64,000 nucleotides of DNA, taken from the NCBI RefSeq assembly GCF_006345805.1, contig NC_042998.1, positions 148,862,001 to 148,926,000 on the forward strand, read 5' to 3'. The DNA comes from Octopus sinensis (Eukaryota). This document shows positions 8,293 to 57,226 of this stretch, piece after piece. Positions within the stretch are counted from its first letter, which is position 1; every line of letters starts with the position of its first letter. Under the pieces are notes generated by a model. The model saw only the letters and a list, made by a program, of their open reading frames with translations. It searched no databases and had not been told where the DNA came from. Position numbers and translations under genes: made by a program.

Positions 8293-9224
8293 TATATATA
8301 TAGGTGAGAGAGTTGGTATATATATATATATATATATACACTTACGTAATCACATATGGACAAACGCACATTCATACGTACAAATACATATACGCTAACA
8401 ACACACACACATACGCAAGACTAATAAACACCTCTTCGTTCACACCTTCTCGTCGTCGTCGTCCTCCTCCTTCTCCTCTACCTCCGCCTCCCTCTCCGCT
8501 TCTTCTCCTCAATGTCTCTTGACACATACAACTGATAGGTTTACGTCTCTTATTTCACGTCATTCCACCGAATATAGCACATAACCATACCCACTCCCCA
8601 ACTATATACCGACACCCCAAACTTTCCCCACCGTGAACTTTGCTCCCTTCCACCTCCCTCTCTATATACCTCTTGCTCTCTTCTTCAATTCCTATTTTCC
8701 CTTCACTCTTCTCATTACTCTCTCAACATCTTTTTGTCTTCTCTTTCCTTCTTTCTTTCCATCTAACTCACTTTTTCTCACGGTCATCTCTCTCTCTCTC
8801 ACACACTCTCTTTCTCTCTCCCTCTCTCTCACACCTACAATCACATACACACATGCACATACATATACACACGTACACTCACGCACGCACATAGAATCAT
8901 ACATACATACGTATATATATATATATATATATACACTTGCTTACATACACACACGCACACATATGTATGTATAAATACACGTCCATATGTATCTGTATGT
9001 ATATTTATAAGCGTGTGCGCGTGTTTTTTCTGTATATTAAGTGTAAGAAGACGCCAATAAATGCGTAGAATGTGTATACATACATACATACAGGCATACA
9101 CATCACACACACATACACACCCACCAATACACATATATACATATATACATATACATACATATATTACATATTATAGATATATACATACATATATACATAC
9201 ATATATACATACATATATATATAT

Positions 9225-9770
9225 GTCCTCACGTGACCAGCCAGCGACTACTGCCTTTTCGCATCCAGCAGTCATTGTGGCAATACGTATTTGTTTGTTC
9301 TCTGTGGCCTTAAGGTACTCTTCTATAGCCAGCTCAAAACTTAACTCGTCCTGTCGAAAAGACGCTTGTCCTGACGTCCTGGTTTTGTTGTTATCCTTAC
9401 CATTATTGTTTTTACGTATTTTGTATTCTTATTCGTGCTATCATTATTGTTTTTACGTATTTTGTATTCTTATTCGTGCTATCATTATTGTTTTTACGTA
9501 TTTTTGTATTTTTATTCGTGTAACATCGTCCGTTTTCCGTCCCTGTGTTTTATACATTCGAGGCTTTCTTCCAAGGAATCTAATGCGCATGGCTTAGATT
9601 TCCCTTGAGGGCTGCCCAGATCGGAGCAATCTCAAGATTAATCAGCCGAAATTGCGAAGATGATCCGGTTCTTGACTGATGATTGAGGGCTTCGAATGTC
9701 CCGTCCGTGTTTTTTGTGTCGTCTTCTAAATGTTTCACGTTCTTGTCCCAGTTTGTATATTTTTTTACTT
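9225..9770 (+). mobile_element. Non-autonomous repeat between TA-rich tracts carrying a candidate permuted hammerhead
   Basis: Internal ~41-bp tandem (cattattgtttttacgtattttgtattcttattcgtgctat) at about 9402-9520; HHR segments at 9626-9691. Confidence 0.5.
9619..9691 (+). ncRNA. Candidate non-circularly permuted hammerhead ribozyme (version 2)
   Basis: GCAA-TC / TCAAGA..AGCC-GAAA-TTGC..TCTTGA-CTGATGA; stem I 6 bp, stem III 5 bp, stem II imperfect. Confidence 0.5.
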
Positions 9771-17600: not shown

Positions 17601-18876
17601 CAGGGGTTGGACAAAATAATGGAAACACCTTAAAATTTCAAACAAATTTATTTTAATATGGTGTAGGACCACATTTGACAGTAATTACAGCTTGAATTCT
17701 ACGAGGTTTGGACTCGTACAAAGTTTGAATTGCTTCCAAAGGAATTTTTATCCATTCTTCAGCTAAAACAGTCTCCAGTTCTTGTAGTGATGATACTGGA
17801 GGATAACGACTCCTTACTTGTTTTTTTCTAAAATGCACTATAAATGTTCAATAATATCGAGATGTGGGGATTGTGGTTGCCAGATAAGATGTTTAACTTG
17901 ATTCACTAGAATTTTTCTCGTGCCATTCAGTAACAAATTTAACTATGTGAATTGGTGCATTATCATCCTGAAAAATTGCGTTTCCCTCTGGAAACAGTTC
18001 TGCAACCATAGGATTAATTTGATCAGATAAAAAGCTTAAATAGTCTTGGCTATTAATTCTGCCATGAAGGGAAACCATTGGGCCGGCGGATTTCCAAGAT
18101 ATAGCCCTTCGCCCTGATCATCACAGATCCTCCTCCATGTTTAACAGTTGGAAGAAGGCAGTCTGGGTCAAATGTTTCTTTTGGCTGTCTCCACACGTAT
18201 ACTCGGCCAGTGGTCGGAAATAAGGTAAAATATGACTCATCCCAGAAAATAACATTCTTCCACTGCTCTGGGAACCAATTCTGTAGGGTTTTACTCCACT
18301 CTAAATTCTTTGCAACGTTTGTTTTTGGAAGTAGTGGTTTTTTTATTGCAGCCTTCCCATGAAATCTGGCTTTGTGCAGCTCCCGGTGAACAGTTTTTGT
18401 GGGAAATGGGTTCTCGAGGTGAACTCTACAGTAATTTTGGGAGCTCTACTTTTGTGATCCTTTCTAACAATTCGCTTAAAATTCCAATGGTCCCTATCTG
18501 AAAGTTTTGCTTTTCTTCCGGAATTTTGTTTCGACGTGGTGGTTTTTCCCTCTTTCTGAAAGGCTGTCATTACTTTGGAGACAATAGTTCTTGATACACT
18601 TAACATTCCGGCTGTTTTCGTTACGCTAGCGCCTGCCATACGAGCACCAATAATTTGACCTTTTTGAAAGTCCGATAGATCTATCATTTTAATGAATTTT
18701 AATTACTTTTTTCTGATGATATCTGAAAAGAAACAGCAATTTTAGCAAAGCATATGAAGCAACACTAATAATAAATAAAAAAACATTAAAATAAATAAGC
18801 TTTTGACGGTTTTATAGATATTTCAAAATTATGATACTATGATGCTACGTGTTTCCATTATTTTGTCCAACCCCTG
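17601..18876 (-). mobile_element. Tc1/mariner DNA transposon, full length (1276 bp)
   Basis: Perfect 28-bp TIRs CAGGGGTTGGACAAAATAATGGAAACAC (17601-17628, 18849-18876) flanked by TA. Confidence 0.95.
17653..18687 (-). pseudogene. Tc1-family DD34E-type transposase, frameshifted
   Basis: ORF pieces DLSDFQKGQIIGARMAGASV (HTH), SGRKAKLSDRD, VIFWDESYF, IFQDDNAPIH, SPHLDIIE, EEWIKIP..PRRIQAVI..GPTPY. Confidence 0.9.
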
Positions 18877-28499: not shown

Positions 28500-28785
28500 G
28501 AAATGGTGGTGTCCTTTATATACCTTTGAAACACGCATTGAGTCGAAACAGGGGCAGCTGATGAAGGGGAATATTCCTTGTATTGTTTGTCTTGTACACT
28601 GTTTTTCGTTGTTAAAAAAGTCCGTTTCTTGTTTGATTTTATGTTTTCGTTTCTCGTTGTGTTGTACGTTTATTTGTGGTGTCCGGTACTCATATATATA
28701 TATGCATGTATATATACATATAGATGTAGGTATGTACATATATGTATGTATGTATGTACATGTTTTATTTATTAAATTGTTATTA
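28500..28785 (+). mobile_element. Diverged relative of the 830-bp monomer, with permuted-HHR-like motif (version 3)
   Basis: GTG-TC..CCTTT-GAAA-CAC..CAG-CTGATGA-AGGGG; downstream ggtgtcc.gtac..atgta.gta.gtacatatatgt shared with the tandem unit. Confidence 0.5.
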
Positions 28786-29569
28786 TATATATATATATAT
28801 ATGATATATATATATATATATATATTTTTTTTTTGCTTGTCTTGTCCTTGGTTTGTGTCTATGTTTTTCGTCTCTATGTGTTCGACGTCTTTTGGTGTCC
28901 TGTACACATATATGCGTGTATATGTACATGTAGAGGTAGGTACGTACATATATGTTTATATATATGCATGGTGTTCTATTTTATTAACATATATACGACT
29001 AAACGCACGCACCCTATTAAGTAAGATTGTTCTGTTTATCAAGTTAGCCTTGATATTAACTCTCACGCGACTCTGCATCTTTCTTTCTTTCTCTCCCATT
29101 CCCTTTTTCGTCTTTTTTCCTCAATTAACTTGTCTCTTCCTCTTCTCTCTCCCCCTCACCGTTCTTCATGGTCTCCTCGCACCATTCCCCTTCTTCTCTC
29201 TCTCCTCTTGCTCCTCCTCCCCCATTCCCGTCGTCCATCTGCGACGATACTTCCGTCGTAACTGCTATCCTGTCTTTTCTCGCCCGCCTTCTAAGGCTAC
29301 TGGTCGACATTCTTTCTCTCTCGTCGTCCACTATAATCCAGCGTTTGCAATACTTTTTCGTTTCTGGCGTTAACAGCCCTTCTATCTTGTTCTCCTTGTC
29401 CTGTCTCTCATGTTGTAATATTTATTTTTCCACTGTTTATATATATATTTTTTACTGTTTATATGTTTGTACTGTCGTTAGCGTCTTGCTTTTTTTACCC
29501 CTCTGCGAAAAGATCTCAGAATTTTAATTGATTTGCTTTTCGCAGGAAGGAAGTGTTTCTTCGAAGTAT

Positions 29570-29630
29570 ACGTCTCGCTTTTATCCTTCGAAACGTTTAG
29601 TAGATGAAACTTAGCGACTGAAGAGGGGAT
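29570..29630 (+). ncRNA. Candidate non-circularly permuted hammerhead, copy 1
   Basis: ACG-TC|TCGCT..ATCCTTC-GAAA-CGT..AGCGA-CTGAAGA-GGGGAT. Confidence 0.55.
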
Positions 29631-30393
29631 TCTCGTTGTGCTTATTGTCCTGTATCTCTTTTTTTGCTTGTCTTGTTCCTTGGTTTGTGTCTATGTTTTT
29701 CGTCTCTCTATGTGTTCGACGTCTTTTGGTGTCCTGTACACATATATGCGTGTATATGTACATGTAGAGGTAGGTACGTACATATATGTTTATATATATG
29801 CATATGTATTTATTAACATATTTATCGACTAAACGCACGCACCCTATTAAGTAAGATTGTTCTGTTTATCAAGTTAGCCTTGATATTAACTCTCCGCGAC
29901 TCTGCATCTTTCTTTCTTTCTCTCCCATTCCCTTTTTCGTCTTTTTTCCCTCAATACTTGTCTCTTCCTCTCTCTCTCCCCCTCACCGTTCTTCATGGTC
30001 TCCTCGCACCATTCCCCTTCTCTCCTCTTTCTCTTGCTCCTCCTCCCCCATTCCCGTCGTCCATCTGCGACGATACTTCCGTCGTAACTGCTATCCTGTC
30101 TTTTCTCGCCCGCCTTCTAAGGCTACTGGTCGACATTCTTTCTCTCTCGTCGTCCACTATATCCAGCGTTTGCAATACTTTTTTCGTCTGGCGTTAACAG
30201 CCCTTCTTATCTTGTTCTCCTTGTCCTGTCTCTCACTGTTATATATTTATTTTTCCACTGTTTATATATATATTTTTTACTGTTTATATGTTTGTACTGT
30301 CGTTACCGTCTTGCTTTTTTTACCCCTCTGCGAAAAGATCTCAGAATTTTAATTGATTTGCTTTTCGCAGGAAGGAAGTTTTCTTCGAAGTAT

Positions 30394-30456
30394 ACGTCTC
30401 GCTTTTATCCTTCGAAACGTTTAGTAGATGAAACCTTAGCGACTGAAGAAGGGGAT
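30394..30456 (+). ncRNA. Candidate non-circularly permuted hammerhead, copy 2
   Basis: ACG-TC|TCGCT..ATCCTTC-GAAA-CGT..AGCGA-CTGAAGA-AGGGGAT. Confidence 0.55.
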
Positions 30457-31225
30457 TTCTCGTTGTGCTTATTGTCCTGTATCTCTTTTTTTTGCTTGTC
30501 TTGTTCCTTGGTTTGTGTCTATGTTTTTCGTCTCTCTATGTGTTCGACGTCTTTTGGTGTCCTGTACACATATATGCGTGTATATGTACATGTAGAGGTA
30601 GGTACGTACATATATGTTTATATATATGCATATGTTCTATTTTATTAACATATTATACGACTAAACGCACGCACCCTATTAAGAAGATTGTTCGTTTATC
30701 AAGTTAGCCTTGATATTAACTCTCACGCGACTCTGCATCTTTCTTTCTTTCTCTCCCATTCCCTTTTTCGTCTTTTTTCCCTCACTTAACTTGTCTCTTC
30801 CTCTCTCTCTCCCCCTCACCGTTCTTCATGGTCTCCTGTACCATTCCCCTTCTTCTCTCTTTTCCTCTTGCTCCTCCTCCCCCATTCCCGTCGTCCATCT
30901 GCGACGATACTTCCGTCGTAACTGCTATCCTGTCTTTTCTCGCCCGCCTTCTAAGGCTACTGGTCGACATTCTTTCTCTCTCGTCGTCCACTATAATCCA
31001 GCGGTTGCAATACTTTTTCGTCTGGCGTTAACAGCCCTCTTATCTTGTTCTCCTTGTCCTGTCTCTCACTGTTATATATTTATTTTTCCACTGTTTATAT
31101 ATATTTTTTACTGTTTATGTGTTTGTACTGTCGTTACACGTCTTGCTTTTTTTACCCCTCTGCGAAAAGATCTCAGAATTTTAATTGATTTGCTTTTCGC
31201 AGGAAGGAAGTTTTCTTCGAAGTAT

Positions 31226-31288
31226 ACGTCTCGCTTTTATCCTTCGAAACGTTTAGTAGATGAAACCTTAGCGACTGAAGAAGGGGAT
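31226..31288 (+). ncRNA. Candidate non-circularly permuted hammerhead, copy 3
   Basis: Same motif as copy 2. Confidence 0.55.
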
Positions 31289-31481
31289 TTCTCGTTGTGC
31301 TTATTGTCCTGTATCTCTTTTTTTGCTTGTCTTGTTCCTTGGTTTGTGTCTATGTTTTTCGTCTCTCTATGTGTTCGACGTCTTTTTGGTGTCCTGTACA
31401 CATATATGCGTGTATATGTACATGTAGAGGTAGGTACGTACATATATGTTTATATATATGCATATGTTCTATTTTATTAAC

Positions 31482-31513
<32 letters not shown>

Positions 31514-34124: not shown

Positions 34125-34528
34125 GTGCAGATTTGTATGTTTTGCTTTATGTATGTATTCTCATGCATATAATTGCATATCTAGACAAGTTCGTATATAT
34201 TTAAATGATAAACTTCTGGAAAGTTTTACAGATTTTCCCAGTTCCAGGGATGAATTGAATCTGTAGTCTTCGAATTAATGAGAAGCTTAATTTCTCAAGA
34301 TTGGTATTTAGGCAGCGTGTTGCATATCCAAAGACCCCAAAAATTACAGCTATAAACCTGAACTTGCAATCTGGGTAGAGTAACTGCAGATTTCTCAATA
34401 GTTCAGCGTAGGTATTCTCTTTTTCACTGATCTTCAGCTTCATGTTAGCTGCTGGGCAGCTAATTTCCGCAATTGTGCACAGTTTCTCTTCTCTATCCCA
34501 AATCATAATATCAGGTCTGTTATGCTTA
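34125..34528 (-). mobile_element. R4/Dong-type LINE 3' fragment, same family as 21655-22440
   Basis: RPDIMIWDREEKLCTIAEISCP..KISEKENTYAELLRNLQLLYPD (RLE domain); (TATG)n on both flanks. Confidence 0.8.
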
Positions 34529-35071
34529 CTATGTATGTATGTATGTATGTATGTATGTATGTATGTATGTATGTATGTATTTATTTATGTATGTATGTAT
34601 GTATGTATGTATGTATGGATGGATGGATGGATGGATGGATGCATGCATGCATGTATGTATGTATAAACAGATGGTCGAGCCGTCTGGTGATCTGAGGAGC
34701 TAGCTTTCGTTATTTACATTGATGTGTGAGCATACAATTGTTATATAATGCTGAGCAGAGATACATTAATGCACACATTTATGCTTAATTTCTTCCATAC
34801 TGAAGCAAATACTTTATGAAGAAGTTTGCGAAACGGCCGTCAGACTATGAAAGACAAGCGGTTAAATAAATATATATTCACCTTTCATGCCTACTGACTA
34901 GATTTTTACATACTTCACGTGAAATTATTTCATCGCTGGGATTTTTTTTGATTTTCAGTTATATGAATACTCTACATTACACTTCTTCGCAGCAGTTGAA
35001 TGGACCAATAACCGAGTCCTTAGAAGAGCTTTCTGTGATAGCCATACGATTCTCAAAATGAACATCTTTTG

Positions 35072-52190: not shown

Positions 52191-52236
52191 TATATATATG
52201 TATAAGGATGAAAAGGAACACACGAGTTGATATATG

Positions 52237-52681
52237 TGAAAATACAAGTCAGGATAGAAAATGCTAAAATAATTTTATAAAGAAAATTTCAGTACCGGTT
52301 TCAGTCATTGAGACCCTTTCAACTGTAACAATTAAATAAGTAAATTTAGAAAAATTAAAAGAACAGTTTTTTTAAAAGAATATTTCGTCTTCTTCCTCCC
52401 CTCCTCCTCATCCCCCTCCTTCTTCTTCTTCCCTACCAAGAATTCACAACGATCTCGAACCCACAAGAGTAAACAAGAGAGACAGAGAAAGGCAGAAACA
52501 AGGAAAATGCCACTTATATTTGAACACTATGCAAATATTCTTTTAAAAAAACTTTTCTTTTAATTTTTCTAAATTTAATTATTTAATTGTTACAGTTGAA
52601 AAGGTCTCAATGACTGAAACCAGTACTGAAATGTTCTTTATATAATTATTTTAGCATTTTCTATCCTGACTTGTTTTTTCA
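52237..52681. mobile_element. Fold-back element with a minimal U3-A8 HHR in each arm
   Basis: IR 52237-52385 / 52533-52681; CAG-TTGAAAA-GGTC-tcaat-GACT-GAAAC-ca-GTA-CTG at 52593-52628. Confidence 0.65.
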
Positions 52682-52695
52682 TATATATATATATA

Positions 52696-54234
52696 TATAA
52701 TTTCAACAATTGAGGGTAAAATTAATTAATTATTAATCAATTTCACCAAGTATTCAGTATGTAAAGGGACCATTATAGGCGAATTCAAAATATTACATTA
52801 TATATAAGGGCTTAGTAAAATAAATTACTTTGCCACATACTGAACTCATTAGAAATAGCAGCTAAAGAAATTTCTTCAGCTATTTCTAATACTTAAAGAA
52901 GATCTCTCTCAGATAGTGTTTGCCTAAACTAACTCACAAAAGTATGGGGGAAAAAACATTAAAAAATCAAGTGCAAAGGTTATTTGAGAACGTACGTTTC
53001 TAGATTAGTCAATTCGACATTTCTTTCTTCAGCTCAGAATTCCTTGAATCGGATTTGGGAACACTGAAAGTCGGGAGCATACCCTTTCGGCTTCTAATCA
53101 CCTCTAGAATTCTGCTCGAACTAAAAGTGCTATCAAATTCGAATATGCAAGCGAAGAATTTCTGCTCTCCCCTTTCCACCAGCGTGGGTTAAAATTGACA
53201 AACACCATGTATTAACGGTGAAAACCGCAGCATTTTACAGAGAAAGATGAATTATAATTTCAACAATTGAGGGTAAAATTAATTAATTATTAATCAATTT
53301 CACCAAGTATTCAGTATGTAAAGGGACCATTATAGGCGAATTCAAAATATTACATTATATATAAGGGCTTAGTAAAATAAATTACTTTGCCACATACTGA
53401 ACTCATTAGAAATAGCAGCTAAAGAAATTTCTTCAGCTATTTCTAATACTTAAAGAAGATCTCTCTCAGATAGTGTTTGCCTAAACTAACTCACAAAAGT
53501 ATGGGGGAAAAAACATTAAAAAATCAAGTGCAAAGGTTATTTGAGAACGTACGTTTCTTGATTAGTCAATTCGACATTTCTTTCTTCAGCTCAGAATTCC
53601 TTGAATCGGATTGGGAACACTGAAAGTCGGGAGCATACCCTTTCGGCTTCTAATCACCTCTAGAATTCTGCTCGAACTAAAAGTGCTATCAAATTCGAAT
53701 ATGCAAGCGAAGAATTTCTGCTCTCCCCTTTCCACCAGCGTCGGTTAAAATTGACAAACACCATGTATTAACGGTGAAAACCGCAGCATTTTACAGAGAA
53801 AGATGAATATAATTTCAACAATTGAGGGTAAAATTAATTAATTATTAATCAATTTCACCAAGTATTCAGTATGTAAAGGACCATTATAGGCGAATTTGAT
53901 AGCACTTTTAGTTCGAGCAGAATTCTAGAGGTGATTAGAAGCCGAAAGGGTATGCTCCCGACTTTCAGTGTTCCCAATCCGATTCAAGGAATTCTGAGCT
54001 GAAGAAAGAAATGTCGAATTGACTAATCTAGAAACGTACGTTCTCAAATAACCTTGGCACTTGATTTTTTAATGTTTTTTCCCCCATACTTTTGTGAGTT
54101 AGTTTAGGCAAACACTATCTGAGAGAGATCTTCTTTAAGTATTAGAAATAGCTGAAGAAATTTCTTTAGCTGCTATTTCTAATGAGTTCAGTATGTGGCA
54201 AAGTAATTTATTTTACTAAGCCCTTATATATAAT
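52696..54234 (-). mobile_element. 557-bp monomer tandem (2 copies plus a partial) joined to an inverted partial copy; one HHR per monomer
   Basis: Starts at 52696, 53253 and 53808; inversion at CGAATT 53891-53896; HHR at 52985-53036(-), 53542-53593(-) and 53995-54046(+). Confidence 0.85.
53995..54046 (+). ncRNA. Type I hammerhead ribozyme motif
   Basis: TGAG-CTGAAGA-aAGAaatGTCgaattGACtaaTCTa-GAAAC-GTAC-GTT|CTCA. Confidence 0.7.
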
Positions 54235-54432
54235 ATATATATATTATATATATGTATATTATGCGCAGGAGTAGCTGTGTGATAAGAAGCTTGCTTCCCA
54301 ACGACATAGTTCCGGGTTCAGTCCCACTGCATGGCACCTTAGACAAGTGATTTCTATTATAGCCTCGGGCTGACCAAAGCCTTGTGAGTGGATTTGGTAA
54401 TCGGAAACTGAAAGAAGTCCCTCGTATATATA

Positions 54433-54466
<34 letters not shown>

Positions 54467-54467
<1 letters not shown>

Positions 54468-55218
54468 GCAATAATAATTCTCTAAATGAGGTATAGACAG
54501 TGACTGCTCCATAATATAAGGGACATTAGCCAACCGAATATGGCTAGGGACAGGGCAGGGTGGTGGGGGTGTCACTGTTGCATTTAGCCCCAGGCGAACA
54601 TCAACGTCACCAGATAGGCCGACGCCATCACGGCGTCCTATATCTTGCAAAGGGAGATCATTCCCCAAGAAGCGGATGCCACACACGGACCTAGGTTTCA
54701 AGGTGTATTGCCTATTATCAACGTGTGGTAGGCACCGCTTCTCGACGAACGACACACCGTGCAAGATATATATAAAGATTTTCAAGTAAATACATTTACT
54801 GATTTCGAGACACCCCCACCACCCTGCCCTGTCCCTAGCCATATTCGGTTGGCTAATGTCCCTTATATTATGGAGCAGTCACTGTCTATACCTCATTTAG
54901 AAAATTATTATTGCTGTCGAACAGATTTTCGAAATCAGTAAATGTATTTACTTGAAAATCTTTTTATATATCTTGCACGGTGTGTCGTTCGTCGAGAAGC
55001 GGTGCCTACCACACGTTGATAATAGGCAATACACCTTGAAACCTAGGTCCGTGTGTGGCATCCGCTTCTTGGGGAATGATCTCCCTTTGCAAGATAAAGG
55101 ACGCCGTGATGGCGTCGGCCTATCTGGTGACGTTGATGTTCGCCTGGGGCTAAATGCAACAGTGACACCCCCACCACCCTGCCCTGTCCCTAGCCATATT
55201 CGGTTGGCTAATGTCCCT

Positions 55219-55223
<5 letters not shown>
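54467..55223 (+). mobile_element. Retrozyme-like element (355-bp monomer) in inverted plus tandem arrangement; sister family of 48211-48840
   Basis: 54467-54808 is the reverse complement of part of 54809-55223; gacaccccc repeats at 54809 and 55164; HHR at 55010-55055(+) and 54682-54727(-). Confidence 0.85.
55010..55055 (+). ncRNA. Type I hammerhead ribozyme, U3-A8 variant
   Basis: CACACG-TTGATAA-tAGG-caataca-CCTt-GAAAC-CTAG-GTC|CGTGTG. Confidence 0.75.
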
Positions 55224-55295
<72 letters not shown>

Positions 55296-55611: not shown

Positions 55612-57226
55612 TGATAAAACGGTAAGATAACAAAAGAAAGAAAGAGACCTCAATATTATGTAAATAGAGGAAATTTATCTATACAATATGTTACATTACT
55701 CGGTAGTCAAGATAAAACTCTGAGTTTCAGATGCCGAAGTGGAAATCCACAACACCATCTCTTCGGTTATCTGGCTATTTGAAAACGTTATGAAAAAATA
55801 CCGTTAAAAATGAAGGGAAATTACTCTGTTATAACTGCTTTGCCTGCGTACTTATACATCGCTCGCATTTTTCGTCATAAAAATTATATAAAAATACATA
55901 AAAATATATAAAAATATATAAAAATATATAAAATCTTCTTGGGACATAACACAGAAAGCATGTTCTATCCGTTTTCTTTAGGGGACCAAAAACGTAACAG
56001 AAATTTAGTCACATGTGGGCATGATCCGAAAAGCTCTGTCCTTGTATTTAGACATGTGGTAGGGTCTAAGCTGCTTTTCCAGATAAGCCATCTCTCCATG
56101 TCGCATAAACCGCACCTTCCGCTGCCGTTAGTGTAGGCTTACATCTGGCCAAAATCTTCCATTGTATGTTATAATCGACACCTTTATCTCTTAAAGACCA
56201 AATATGATTGGATATTGTGTCGCTTTTCTTTTGTTCCAGTGCCTAAAGCTCAAAGTGTGGTTATTGAACCTGGCCTTGAAATTACCCTCTGTCAGGCCCA
56301 CGTATTTCTTCGTCGAAACGGTGTCTTTAGTGGTTATAGAGTTTACGGTAGCTTCATATATGATGGTCTTGGACATGCAAGCTCCATTTAGCGGGCACAA
56401 TTCTTTATTCCTGCATGAACAGCTGTTTTCTTCTTGTGTTTTTTGTATGTTATGATTGATTATGTTTTTAAAATTGGTAGTTGAACTAAAACTAATTTTT
56501 AAATTGTGTCTATTGAAGAGTTTCCTATAAGCATGGTTAACTGGAAAATGTCTATCTATCAGTGCTAGGAAATATTTACCATATTGAAGGCCACCTCGGG
56601 TGAGTAAGGGGGCATAAACCAGATGACCTTCCTATTTCTATTATTCCTTTTCCTTACTGTTGGGCTGGTGATAGGTGTATATTTATTTTTTCGCTAAAAC
56701 CACTATCTTTTAAAGCTTTATTATAAACTGGGGCAACGCTATTGAAGATGTCCTCATTGGATGAGAGGCTAGAAATCCTCTTACTAATATTAACTAAATT
56801 TTTGAATACTATAGGGGGATGGCATGAACCTACATTAATATAACTTAGTCTATCATTGGGCTTCCTATAAGGCTTATAAATATTATTATTAAGATCTAAG
56901 GAAACGTCTAAGAAATTGACAACCGTCAGGTTAGTGTCTATTGTTATACTAAGTCCGAACATGCTTTCTGTGTTATGTCCCAAGAAGATTTTATATATTT
57001 TTATATATTTTTATGTATTTTTATATAATTTTTATGACGAAAAATGCGAGCGATGTATAAGTACGCAGGCAAAGCAGAGTTATAACAGAGTAATTTCCCT
57101 TCATTTTTAACGGTATTTTTTCATAACGTTTTCAAATAGCCAGATAACCGAAGAGATGGTGTTGTGGATTTCCACTTCGGCATCTGAAACTCGGAGTTTT
57201 ATCTTGACTACCGAGTAATGTAACAT

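Follow-up and report, generated by a model that had tools for sequence, protein, structure and literature searches.

The copy of a non-coding repeat that lies near one end of the stretch of the Octopus sinensis genome analysed here (assembly GCF_006345805.1, contig NC_042998.1) contains all the core bases of the hammerhead ribozyme, arranged in the order S-G-C. This raises the question of how such a chain would close a hammerhead fold, whether the RNA would cut itself, and what kind of element carries it. In the following, the window denotes the whole 64,000-nucleotide stretch, which is microsatellite-rich DNA, and all positions are counted from its first letter. No second copy of the repeat was found within these 64 kb. 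The features of the copy, henceforth the 9.6-kb copy, are as follows.

9226-9770, forward strand: host repeat copy of about 545 bp, non-coding, bounded by (TA)-rich microsatellites.
9602-9609 with 9683-9689, forward strand: helix IV, its 3' strand directly after A9, two registers possible.
9610-9614/9643-9647, forward strand: stem II, five Watson-Crick pairs, G10.1 being G9610 and C11.1 being C9647.
9615 with 9642, forward strand: sixth pair of stem II, a GU pair in most of the family.
9620-9625/9664-9669, forward strand: helix X, five Watson-Crick pairs and one GU pair.
9626-9630/9651-9655, forward strand: stem III, five Watson-Crick pairs, the 5' strand ending in U16.1.
9631, forward strand: C17 of the AUC site, with the cut predicted on its 3' side by structural analogy to the hammerhead core.
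9632-9637/9670-9675, forward strand: stem I, six Watson-Crick pairs, 9632-9637 being the strand 3' of the cut.
9648-9651, forward strand: GAAA core (G12 to A15.1); 9648-9655 comprises this core and the 3' strand of stem III.
9676-9682, forward strand: CUGAUGA, the CUGAnGA core, with N7 at 9680.

The sequence-only reading from which this analysis started had located stems I and III, the AUC site, GAAA and CUGAUGA, and each of these segments was recovered at its place, the core bases being complete (CUGAnGA at 9676-9682, GAAA at 9648-9651, UH at 9630-9631). When the whole window was scanned on both strands for hammerhead blocks in any order, with at least five Watson-Crick pairs demanded in stem I and at least three in stem III beyond the A-U pair, four matches were obtained, all in the order S-G-C: one at 9626-9683 and three in an unrelated tandem unit of about 830 bp. 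Two hundred block-wise dinucleotide shuffles of the window gave no match in this order and five in any order; the blocks, both stems (I and III) and their arrangement as S-G-C are genuine and far beyond chance. The circular orders of types I, II and III (C-G-S, G-S-C and S-C-G, with nested stems) do not describe the motif. Rfam hammerhead models were absent among the matches listed for the window (150 of 176), and local scans of 9226-9770 and 30250-30540 found none at E<=10.

Hammerheads with non-circular order are known. In the available portions of Eckert et al. (2023; PMC10085705) they are reported to cleave in vitro, and the order S-G-C constitutes type SGC, for which cleavage was validated; the SGC examples came from metatranscriptomes and those of type CSG from two metagenome sequences, the genomes of known organisms being represented there by one GCS candidate only. 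Their six-order scheme assumes that CUGAnGA and the neighbouring stem strands are inseparable beyond 1-2 nt, and the published SGC descriptors permit 0-1 inserted base after CUGAnGA (PMC10085705).

It is stem II that sets the octopus motif apart. The earlier reading had called this stem imperfect and formed it from 9644-9647 and 9688-9691 across a 5-nt insertion. Directly after CUGAUGA no pair is made in direct register with the strand before GAAA, and imperfection is indeed what one sees if a partner is sought only after the core. When partners for the strand that ends at C11.1 were sought as far as 95 nt upstream and 60 nt downstream, the better one that had been missed came to light, 9610-9614 (five Watson-Crick pairs, the first being G:C), ahead of 9688-9691 with four pairs. 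The best partner likewise lies upstream in all four window copies, namely the 9.6-kb copy and the three 830-bp units, and the bases after the core, the supposed 5-nt insertion among them, form helix IV, so that the stem II first assigned is probably wrong. Given the upstream strand, stems I, II and III (six, five and five Watson-Crick pairs) all abut the core, and the pairs G10.1:C11.1 and A15.1:U16.1 are present. Since the stem II strand lies upstream of the cut and helix IV follows CUGAUGA, the opening of the chain falls between A9 and G10.1. This order is outside the six-permutation scheme as set out in the accessible text of Eckert et al. (2023).

Helix IV can be drawn in two registers, 9602-9608/9683-9689 with seven pairs or 9603-9609/9683-9689 with six pairs and one mismatch. 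The pairing 9620-9625/9664-9669, previously regarded as an extension of stem III, does exist; because its two strands come from the segments 3' of the stem II strand and 5' of the stem I strand, this helix X would instead correspond to the helix of stem I-stem II interaction described by Eckert et al. By shuffling the 60 nt upstream of the motif in the 9.6-kb copy, a comparable stem II arose in 14514 of 200000 trials, and stem II together with an abutting helix IV in 1080 of 200000, while the 6-bp stem II of the 830-bp unit arose in 1987 of 200000 trials with shuffled upstream sequence. A descriptor of the opened form, written after the four window matches had been seen, gave these four matches in the window, one in 300 shuffled windows and none in 108 metagenome loci.

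Three other interpretations of the bases around the core were considered and dropped: a post-core register of stem II, 9683-9686/9642-9645, leaving two unpaired bases before GAAA, once the upstream partner had been found; an insertion by decay of the five bases after the core, as no insertion or deletion of at least 3% is listed there in the family data; and a target-site duplication represented by the 9-nt direct repeat 9605-9613/9683-9691, as 9608 differs in about 90% of the family depth. A possible small hairpin at 9687-9702, after helix IV, competes with that helix for 9687-9689; with the family letters at 9690 and 9699 its mismatch could become a pair.

The second family of the window has the same wiring, with different stem letters, in all three of its motif copies, and it is unrelated in sequence to the 9.6-kb repeat. 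Its features are as follows.

28828-31489, forward strand: about 3.2 tandem units, each of about 830 bp and 96% alike, with one motif per unit, the array being flanked by (TA)-rich tracts.
29498-29628, forward strand: motif copy 1, helix IV strand at 29498, 10-bp hairpin V at 29503-29545, 5' strand of stem II at 29546.
29574, 29590 and 29618, forward strand: C17, GAAA and core of copy 1, which has small indels relative to copies 2 and 3.
30323-30454, forward strand: motif copy 2, helix IV 30323-30327/30450-30454, hairpin V 30328-30370, stem II 30371-30376/30408-30413.
30398, 30414 and 30443, forward strand: C17, GAAA and core of copy 2.
31155-31286, forward strand: motif copy 3, built as copy 2, 5' strand of stem II at 31203, C17 at 31230, GAAA at 31246, core at 31275.

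In every unit the upstream partner makes six Watson-Crick pairs in stem II, and the 10-bp hairpin V separates the helix IV strand from G10.1. Helices IV and V appear in the nested minimum-energy fold of copy 2, and the tail after the core has a competing partner at 30374-30384. Counted from the core outward, both sides of the pair differ between the two families at three of five pairs in stem I, three of five in stem II and three of four in stem III, which bears out the earlier suggestion that the permuted architecture is kept in structure and not in sequence. A fragment of the 830-bp unit, 76% alike, lies at 28624-28775.

As for the elements that carry such motifs, the Naiad clade of Penelope-like elements deserves particular attention. 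In the accessible text of Craig et al. (2021; PMC8557442), Naiads are described as preferring (TA)n for insertion and as lacking canonical hammerheads; 17 of 54 Naiad consensi are marked HHR_core or HHR_half_core, with cores that fit no descriptor and with no structure given. The consensi of its File S5, in the form available, were read by eye, with no program or control, at the 62 places where the word CTGAnGA is unsplit by a line break, a reading that misses cores split by line breaks or bearing variant letters. The opened wiring was recognized in nine of the 54 consensi, amounting to six independent sequence types, and all nine show an upstream stem II starting with G, helix X, a hairpin between helix IV and G10.1 like that of the 830-bp unit, and helix IV itself. 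They are Naiad_Amil, Naiad_Aacu, Naiad_Anas, Naiad_Obim, Naiad_Ovul and four further records identified by file part alone (9, 12, 12 and 19), the names resting on the next header and on the order in File S1. Naiad_Aacu has one mismatch each in stems I and II, and helix IV amounts to 4-14 pairs, being weak in the two octopus consensi (three pairs, a mismatch and two GU pairs). Naiad_Bfor shows the same order with just two pairs in stem I. By the same reading of File S5, six consensi of the nematode block (parts 13-16) carry the plain type CSG, two places have the order S-G-C, the tail pairing with the segment ahead of stem I and stem II being weak, and no motif was seen at 39 of the 62 places. 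Five core-bearing Naiad tails (four in parts 17-19, and Naiad-2_Skow), which with the two S-G-C places fall in parts 16-19 and 26, may be further wirings.

The 9.6-kb repeat resembles the Naiads in its (TA)n context, in the position of the motif near the 3' end and in the opened wiring, which by eye it has in common with Naiad_Obim and Naiad_Ovul in the available consensi. The cut after 9631 would fall about 140 nt from the 3' end of the repeat, compared with about 120-130 nt in those Naiads of File S5 whose end is visible. The likeness seen is one of wiring, the stems of the window repeat differing by eye from those of Naiad_Obim and Naiad_Ovul. The (TA)-rich tracts that flank both window repeats are a weak sign of Naiads, such tracts filling the window. 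A Naiad-type open reading frame (N-terminal GIY-YIG, CxC motif, reverse transcriptase) was found neither in nor beside 9226-9770, where the longest frames gave no family. In the 5' half of the repeat, on the opposite strand, an 85-codon open frame at 9171-9428 reads protein-like; its best Atlas score (9174-9428, minus strand) was 0.85, a level that shuffled proteins also reach, with no supported relative. Three 41-nt tandem copies lie inside the repeat at 9398-9520, upstream of the ribozyme motif. The 9.6-kb repeat most likely derives, as a non-autonomous or truncated form, from a Naiad-type Penelope-like retroelement, and we infer that both window repeats are non-autonomous Naiad-type derivatives.

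Hammerheads of other Penelope-like elements provide a second comparison. The accessible text of Cervera and de la Pena (2014; PMC4209133) describes them as often cutting poorly in vitro and proposes that they free unit RNAs from tandem transcripts, and animal retrozymes are held to derive from Penelope-like termini in the portion available of Li, Clavereau and Pollet (2026; 10.64898/2026.07.22.740005). So far as these sources go, the window motifs share with canonical Penelope-like hammerheads and non-LTR retrozymes a terminal, non-coding position, and the 830-bp array is, like the retrozymes, a non-autonomous series of tandem non-coding units with one hammerhead motif each; the single 9.6-kb copy is not tandem. 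They differ in that the canonical forms are type I hammerheads with a very short stem III that act as dimers, whereas neither window motif is type I, both having a full stem III and another connectivity.

Other traces of mobile elements were noted in the window. On the minus strand, 56191-57010 holds a broken Penelope-like open reading frame with a reverse transcriptase-like part followed by a C-terminal GIY-YIG (Pfam E 0.005), not the Naiad layout, and it is flanked by a 98% inverted repeat (55673-55876/57036-57241). A Tc1/Tc3-type transposase remnant in two frames lies at 18053-18702 (minus strand), and a frame at 34201-34584 (minus strand), which has no Pfam match, presumably resembles the restriction-like endonuclease end of a non-LTR element. 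At 52230-55226, direct and inverted duplications of 150-640 bp, 95-99% identical, form a cluster that resembles the way Penelope-like insertions lie in tandem and inverted, or that may be an assembly artefact. Some translations of repeats in the window may resemble those of octopus repeats.

Taken as a whole, we consider it likely that a non-autonomous Naiad-type Penelope-like repeat carries its hammerhead at 9602-9689, with the chain opened between A9 and G10.1 and the cut falling after 9631. Read in the 5' half as helix IV strand, stem II strand, helix X strand, stem III strand, UC with the cut behind it and stem I strand, and in the 3' half as stem II partner, GAAA, stem III partner, helix X partner, stem I partner, CUGAnGA and helix IV partner, the chain could stack helices IV, X and III as a rod, whose top loop would fold back onto both sides of the internal loop and pair there into stems I and II as two pseudoknots. 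Helix IV would keep A9 beside G10.1, substituting for the missing backbone link. In the hammerhead, a metal site is made up of the A9 phosphate and N7 of G10.1, and catalysis falls to the bases G8 and G12. A9, G10.1, G8 and G12 are all kept in the motif, and the opening need not remove the metal-site phosphate, which lies 5' of A9. The analogy with the hammerhead core predicts a cut after C9631, and unit RNAs would thereby be set free from read-through or tandem transcripts, a presumed role in transposition.

Conservation within the family bears on whether the fold cuts at all. The repeat stretch is present in 20 of the 24 sequencing runs listed, and 6271, 4965, 1810 and 2957 contigs matched 9521-9765 in four runs, one per organism label, the family depth peaking over the motif; it is the very many distinct contigs that indicate an abundant family, depth itself not being copy number. 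The family data are shares per place from short contigs, not whole copies, so within-family covariation lies outside them. An alternative letter of at least 3% occurs at none of the ten fixed core places, one of 32 places in stems I-III, six of 17 in the linkers and N7, and 12 of 81 in the flanks (Fisher p 0.0016 against the linkers and 0.013 against linkers and flanks, a test that closely related copies inflate). N7 at 9680 is the sole variable core place, T>A in 62-84% of depth and G in the loose-end subfamily. No family variant of at least 3% is found in 9632-9637 (stem I) or 9642-9647 (stem II), and 9615 C>G, at 82-92% of depth, gives the upstream stem II its sixth pair. One stem III pair is broken by 9654 G>A in 12-18% of depth; no change of the partner was seen, the 5' strands being far shallower in depth.

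In helix X the family letters at 9620, 9622 and 9666 all preserve pairing, and in the second register of helix IV those at 9683, 9687 and 9608 keep pairs and 9607 and 9690G mend them; the minor changes 9684 T>A, 9609 G>T and 9608 A>C break helix IV, and 9687 G>A breaks the other register. Thirteen letter changes on proposed pairs divide into six that keep, three that mend, two that break and two that fall on a mismatch. Not in this count are 9656, at odds with helix X, and a set of minor changes (9609 G>T, 9608 A>C, 9690 C>T, 9656 G>A and 9658 A>C). Among the loose-end rows listed (24 of 498), nine contigs of run X5 join (TA)n to 9639, 7 nt 3' of the predicted cut, a weak hint that was not counted as evidence. 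A metagenome scan with the family pattern gave 108 matches, none with stem I and the core downstream and hence taken as chance, and the viral contigs gave none.

A fold that is real and conserved could also be non-cutting or weakly cutting, a docking or protective structure derived from a hammerhead at the tail of the element and bound by the reverse transcriptase or another protein. This reading gains from helix IV interrupting the block that is taken as uninterruptible beyond 1-2 nt in the available text of Eckert et al. (PMC10085705) and from the poor cutting in vitro of many Penelope-type hammerheads (PMC4209133, as accessible). However, the ten invariant core bases with N7 left free are the pattern expected of catalysis, and G10.1:C11.1 and U16.1-H17 are kept in both window families as well as in the Naiad examples of File S5, so that we regard a non-cutting structure as unlikely, though it is the foremost of the alternatives.

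Folding raises a narrower doubt, that the ribozyme works in the family and the 9.6-kb copy is inert, either untranscribed or misfolded into a competing rod. Without pseudoknots, the minimum-energy fold of this copy is a different structure (-26.5 kcal/mol, z 0.25) with none of the ribozyme helices, and a slightly longer cut of the region gives a competing fold of -27.1 kcal/mol, again without them. The nested part of the model (helices IV, X and III) amounts to -12.7 kcal/mol, to which the stacking of stems I and II adds -9.9 and -10.9 kcal/mol before pseudoknot costs, the folding program being unable to score the two pseudoknots. At several places the copy departs from the letters common in the family, and the competing fold may be peculiar to it: family letters break that fold in eight of ten cases, which makes the misfolding look copy-specific. 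Misfolding of this copy is possible, but the core and stems I-III are perfect in it and the energies compared leave the pseudoknots unscored, and an inert copy seems a distinctly improbable explanation.

The opened hammerhead shares with the published SGC and CSG types, as far as described in the text available, the full core, the pseudoknotted stems and a short link between stems I and II, and with type SGC in particular the reverse cyclic order and a helix that joins the far sides of stems I and II, which we take to be equivalent. Unlike type SGC, it has the stem II strand 5' of the cut site instead of joined to CUGAnGA, and an extra helix closing the ends at A9/G10.1; it also sits in an abundant animal repeat, whereas the SGC and CSG examples are environmental (PMC10085705). 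A plain type SGC, with stem II at 9644-9647/9688-9691 after a 5-nt insertion, has some points in its favour: four Watson-Crick pairs are possible, 9688, 9689 and 9691 have no variant of at least 3%, and SGC-like motifs seem present in two Naiad consensi of File S5. But this stem is shorter and weaker than the upstream one (duplex energies of -4.2 and -6.8 kcal/mol), 9690 C>G breaks it, the tail of the loose-end subfamily lacks the 9688-9691 strand, its insertion exceeds the 0-1 base of the published descriptors, and in the 830-bp unit and the Naiad examples it is an upstream strand that completes stem II; we hold plain SGC to be very improbable. A chance arrangement of short words in a repeat is hardly credible, for although the words are short and the opened-form descriptor was post hoc, the block order appeared in 0 of 200 shuffles, the full descriptor matched once in 300 shuffles against four real matches, and two unrelated families of one window have their wiring in common with several Naiad consensi as available.

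The motif is accordingly a new form of a known ribozyme class, its structure well supported, its activity and Naiad descent presumed. Hammerhead variants with additional helices have been reported (PMC13725137 in its accessible part, citing Weinberg et al. 2015). Their existence may lower the novelty of helix IV itself. The extra-helix variant of Weinberg and colleagues from 2015 is said to be a bacterial or metagenomic type I form and not of non-circular order in a retroelement, and De la Pena and Flores in 2001 reportedly described an extra core nucleotide, between A9 and G10.1. The literature covered, outside of which most subscription papers lie, yielded no hammerhead opened at A9/G10.1 and no permuted hammerheads in Naiads, and no passage on extra helices or opened cores was found in the accessible parts of PMC10162972 (Forgia et al.), PMC3088659, PMC6765202, PMC6155905 and PMC11014351.

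On balance we lean towards a broader view, in which Naiads are not without hammerheads, many of them using non-circularly permuted ones, among these the A9/G10.1-opened form, which would be active and present in thousands of genomic copies. The opened form, CSG and probably SGC would co-occur in this one clade across animal phyla, and since they are circular permutations of each other, tandem Penelope-like copies may be where the wirings interconvert. This offers a candidate answer to the puzzle that Naiads, unlike other animal Penelope-like elements, seemed hammerhead-free despite their visible cores. If true, non-circular hammerheads would move from a few environmental RNAs to animal genomes at high copy number, and an opening point excluded by the published permutation scheme would be added, so that current descriptors and Rfam models would miss a whole class of copies. 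Ribozyme design, too, would gain a new starting point from a hammerhead whose free ends lie at A9/G10.1.
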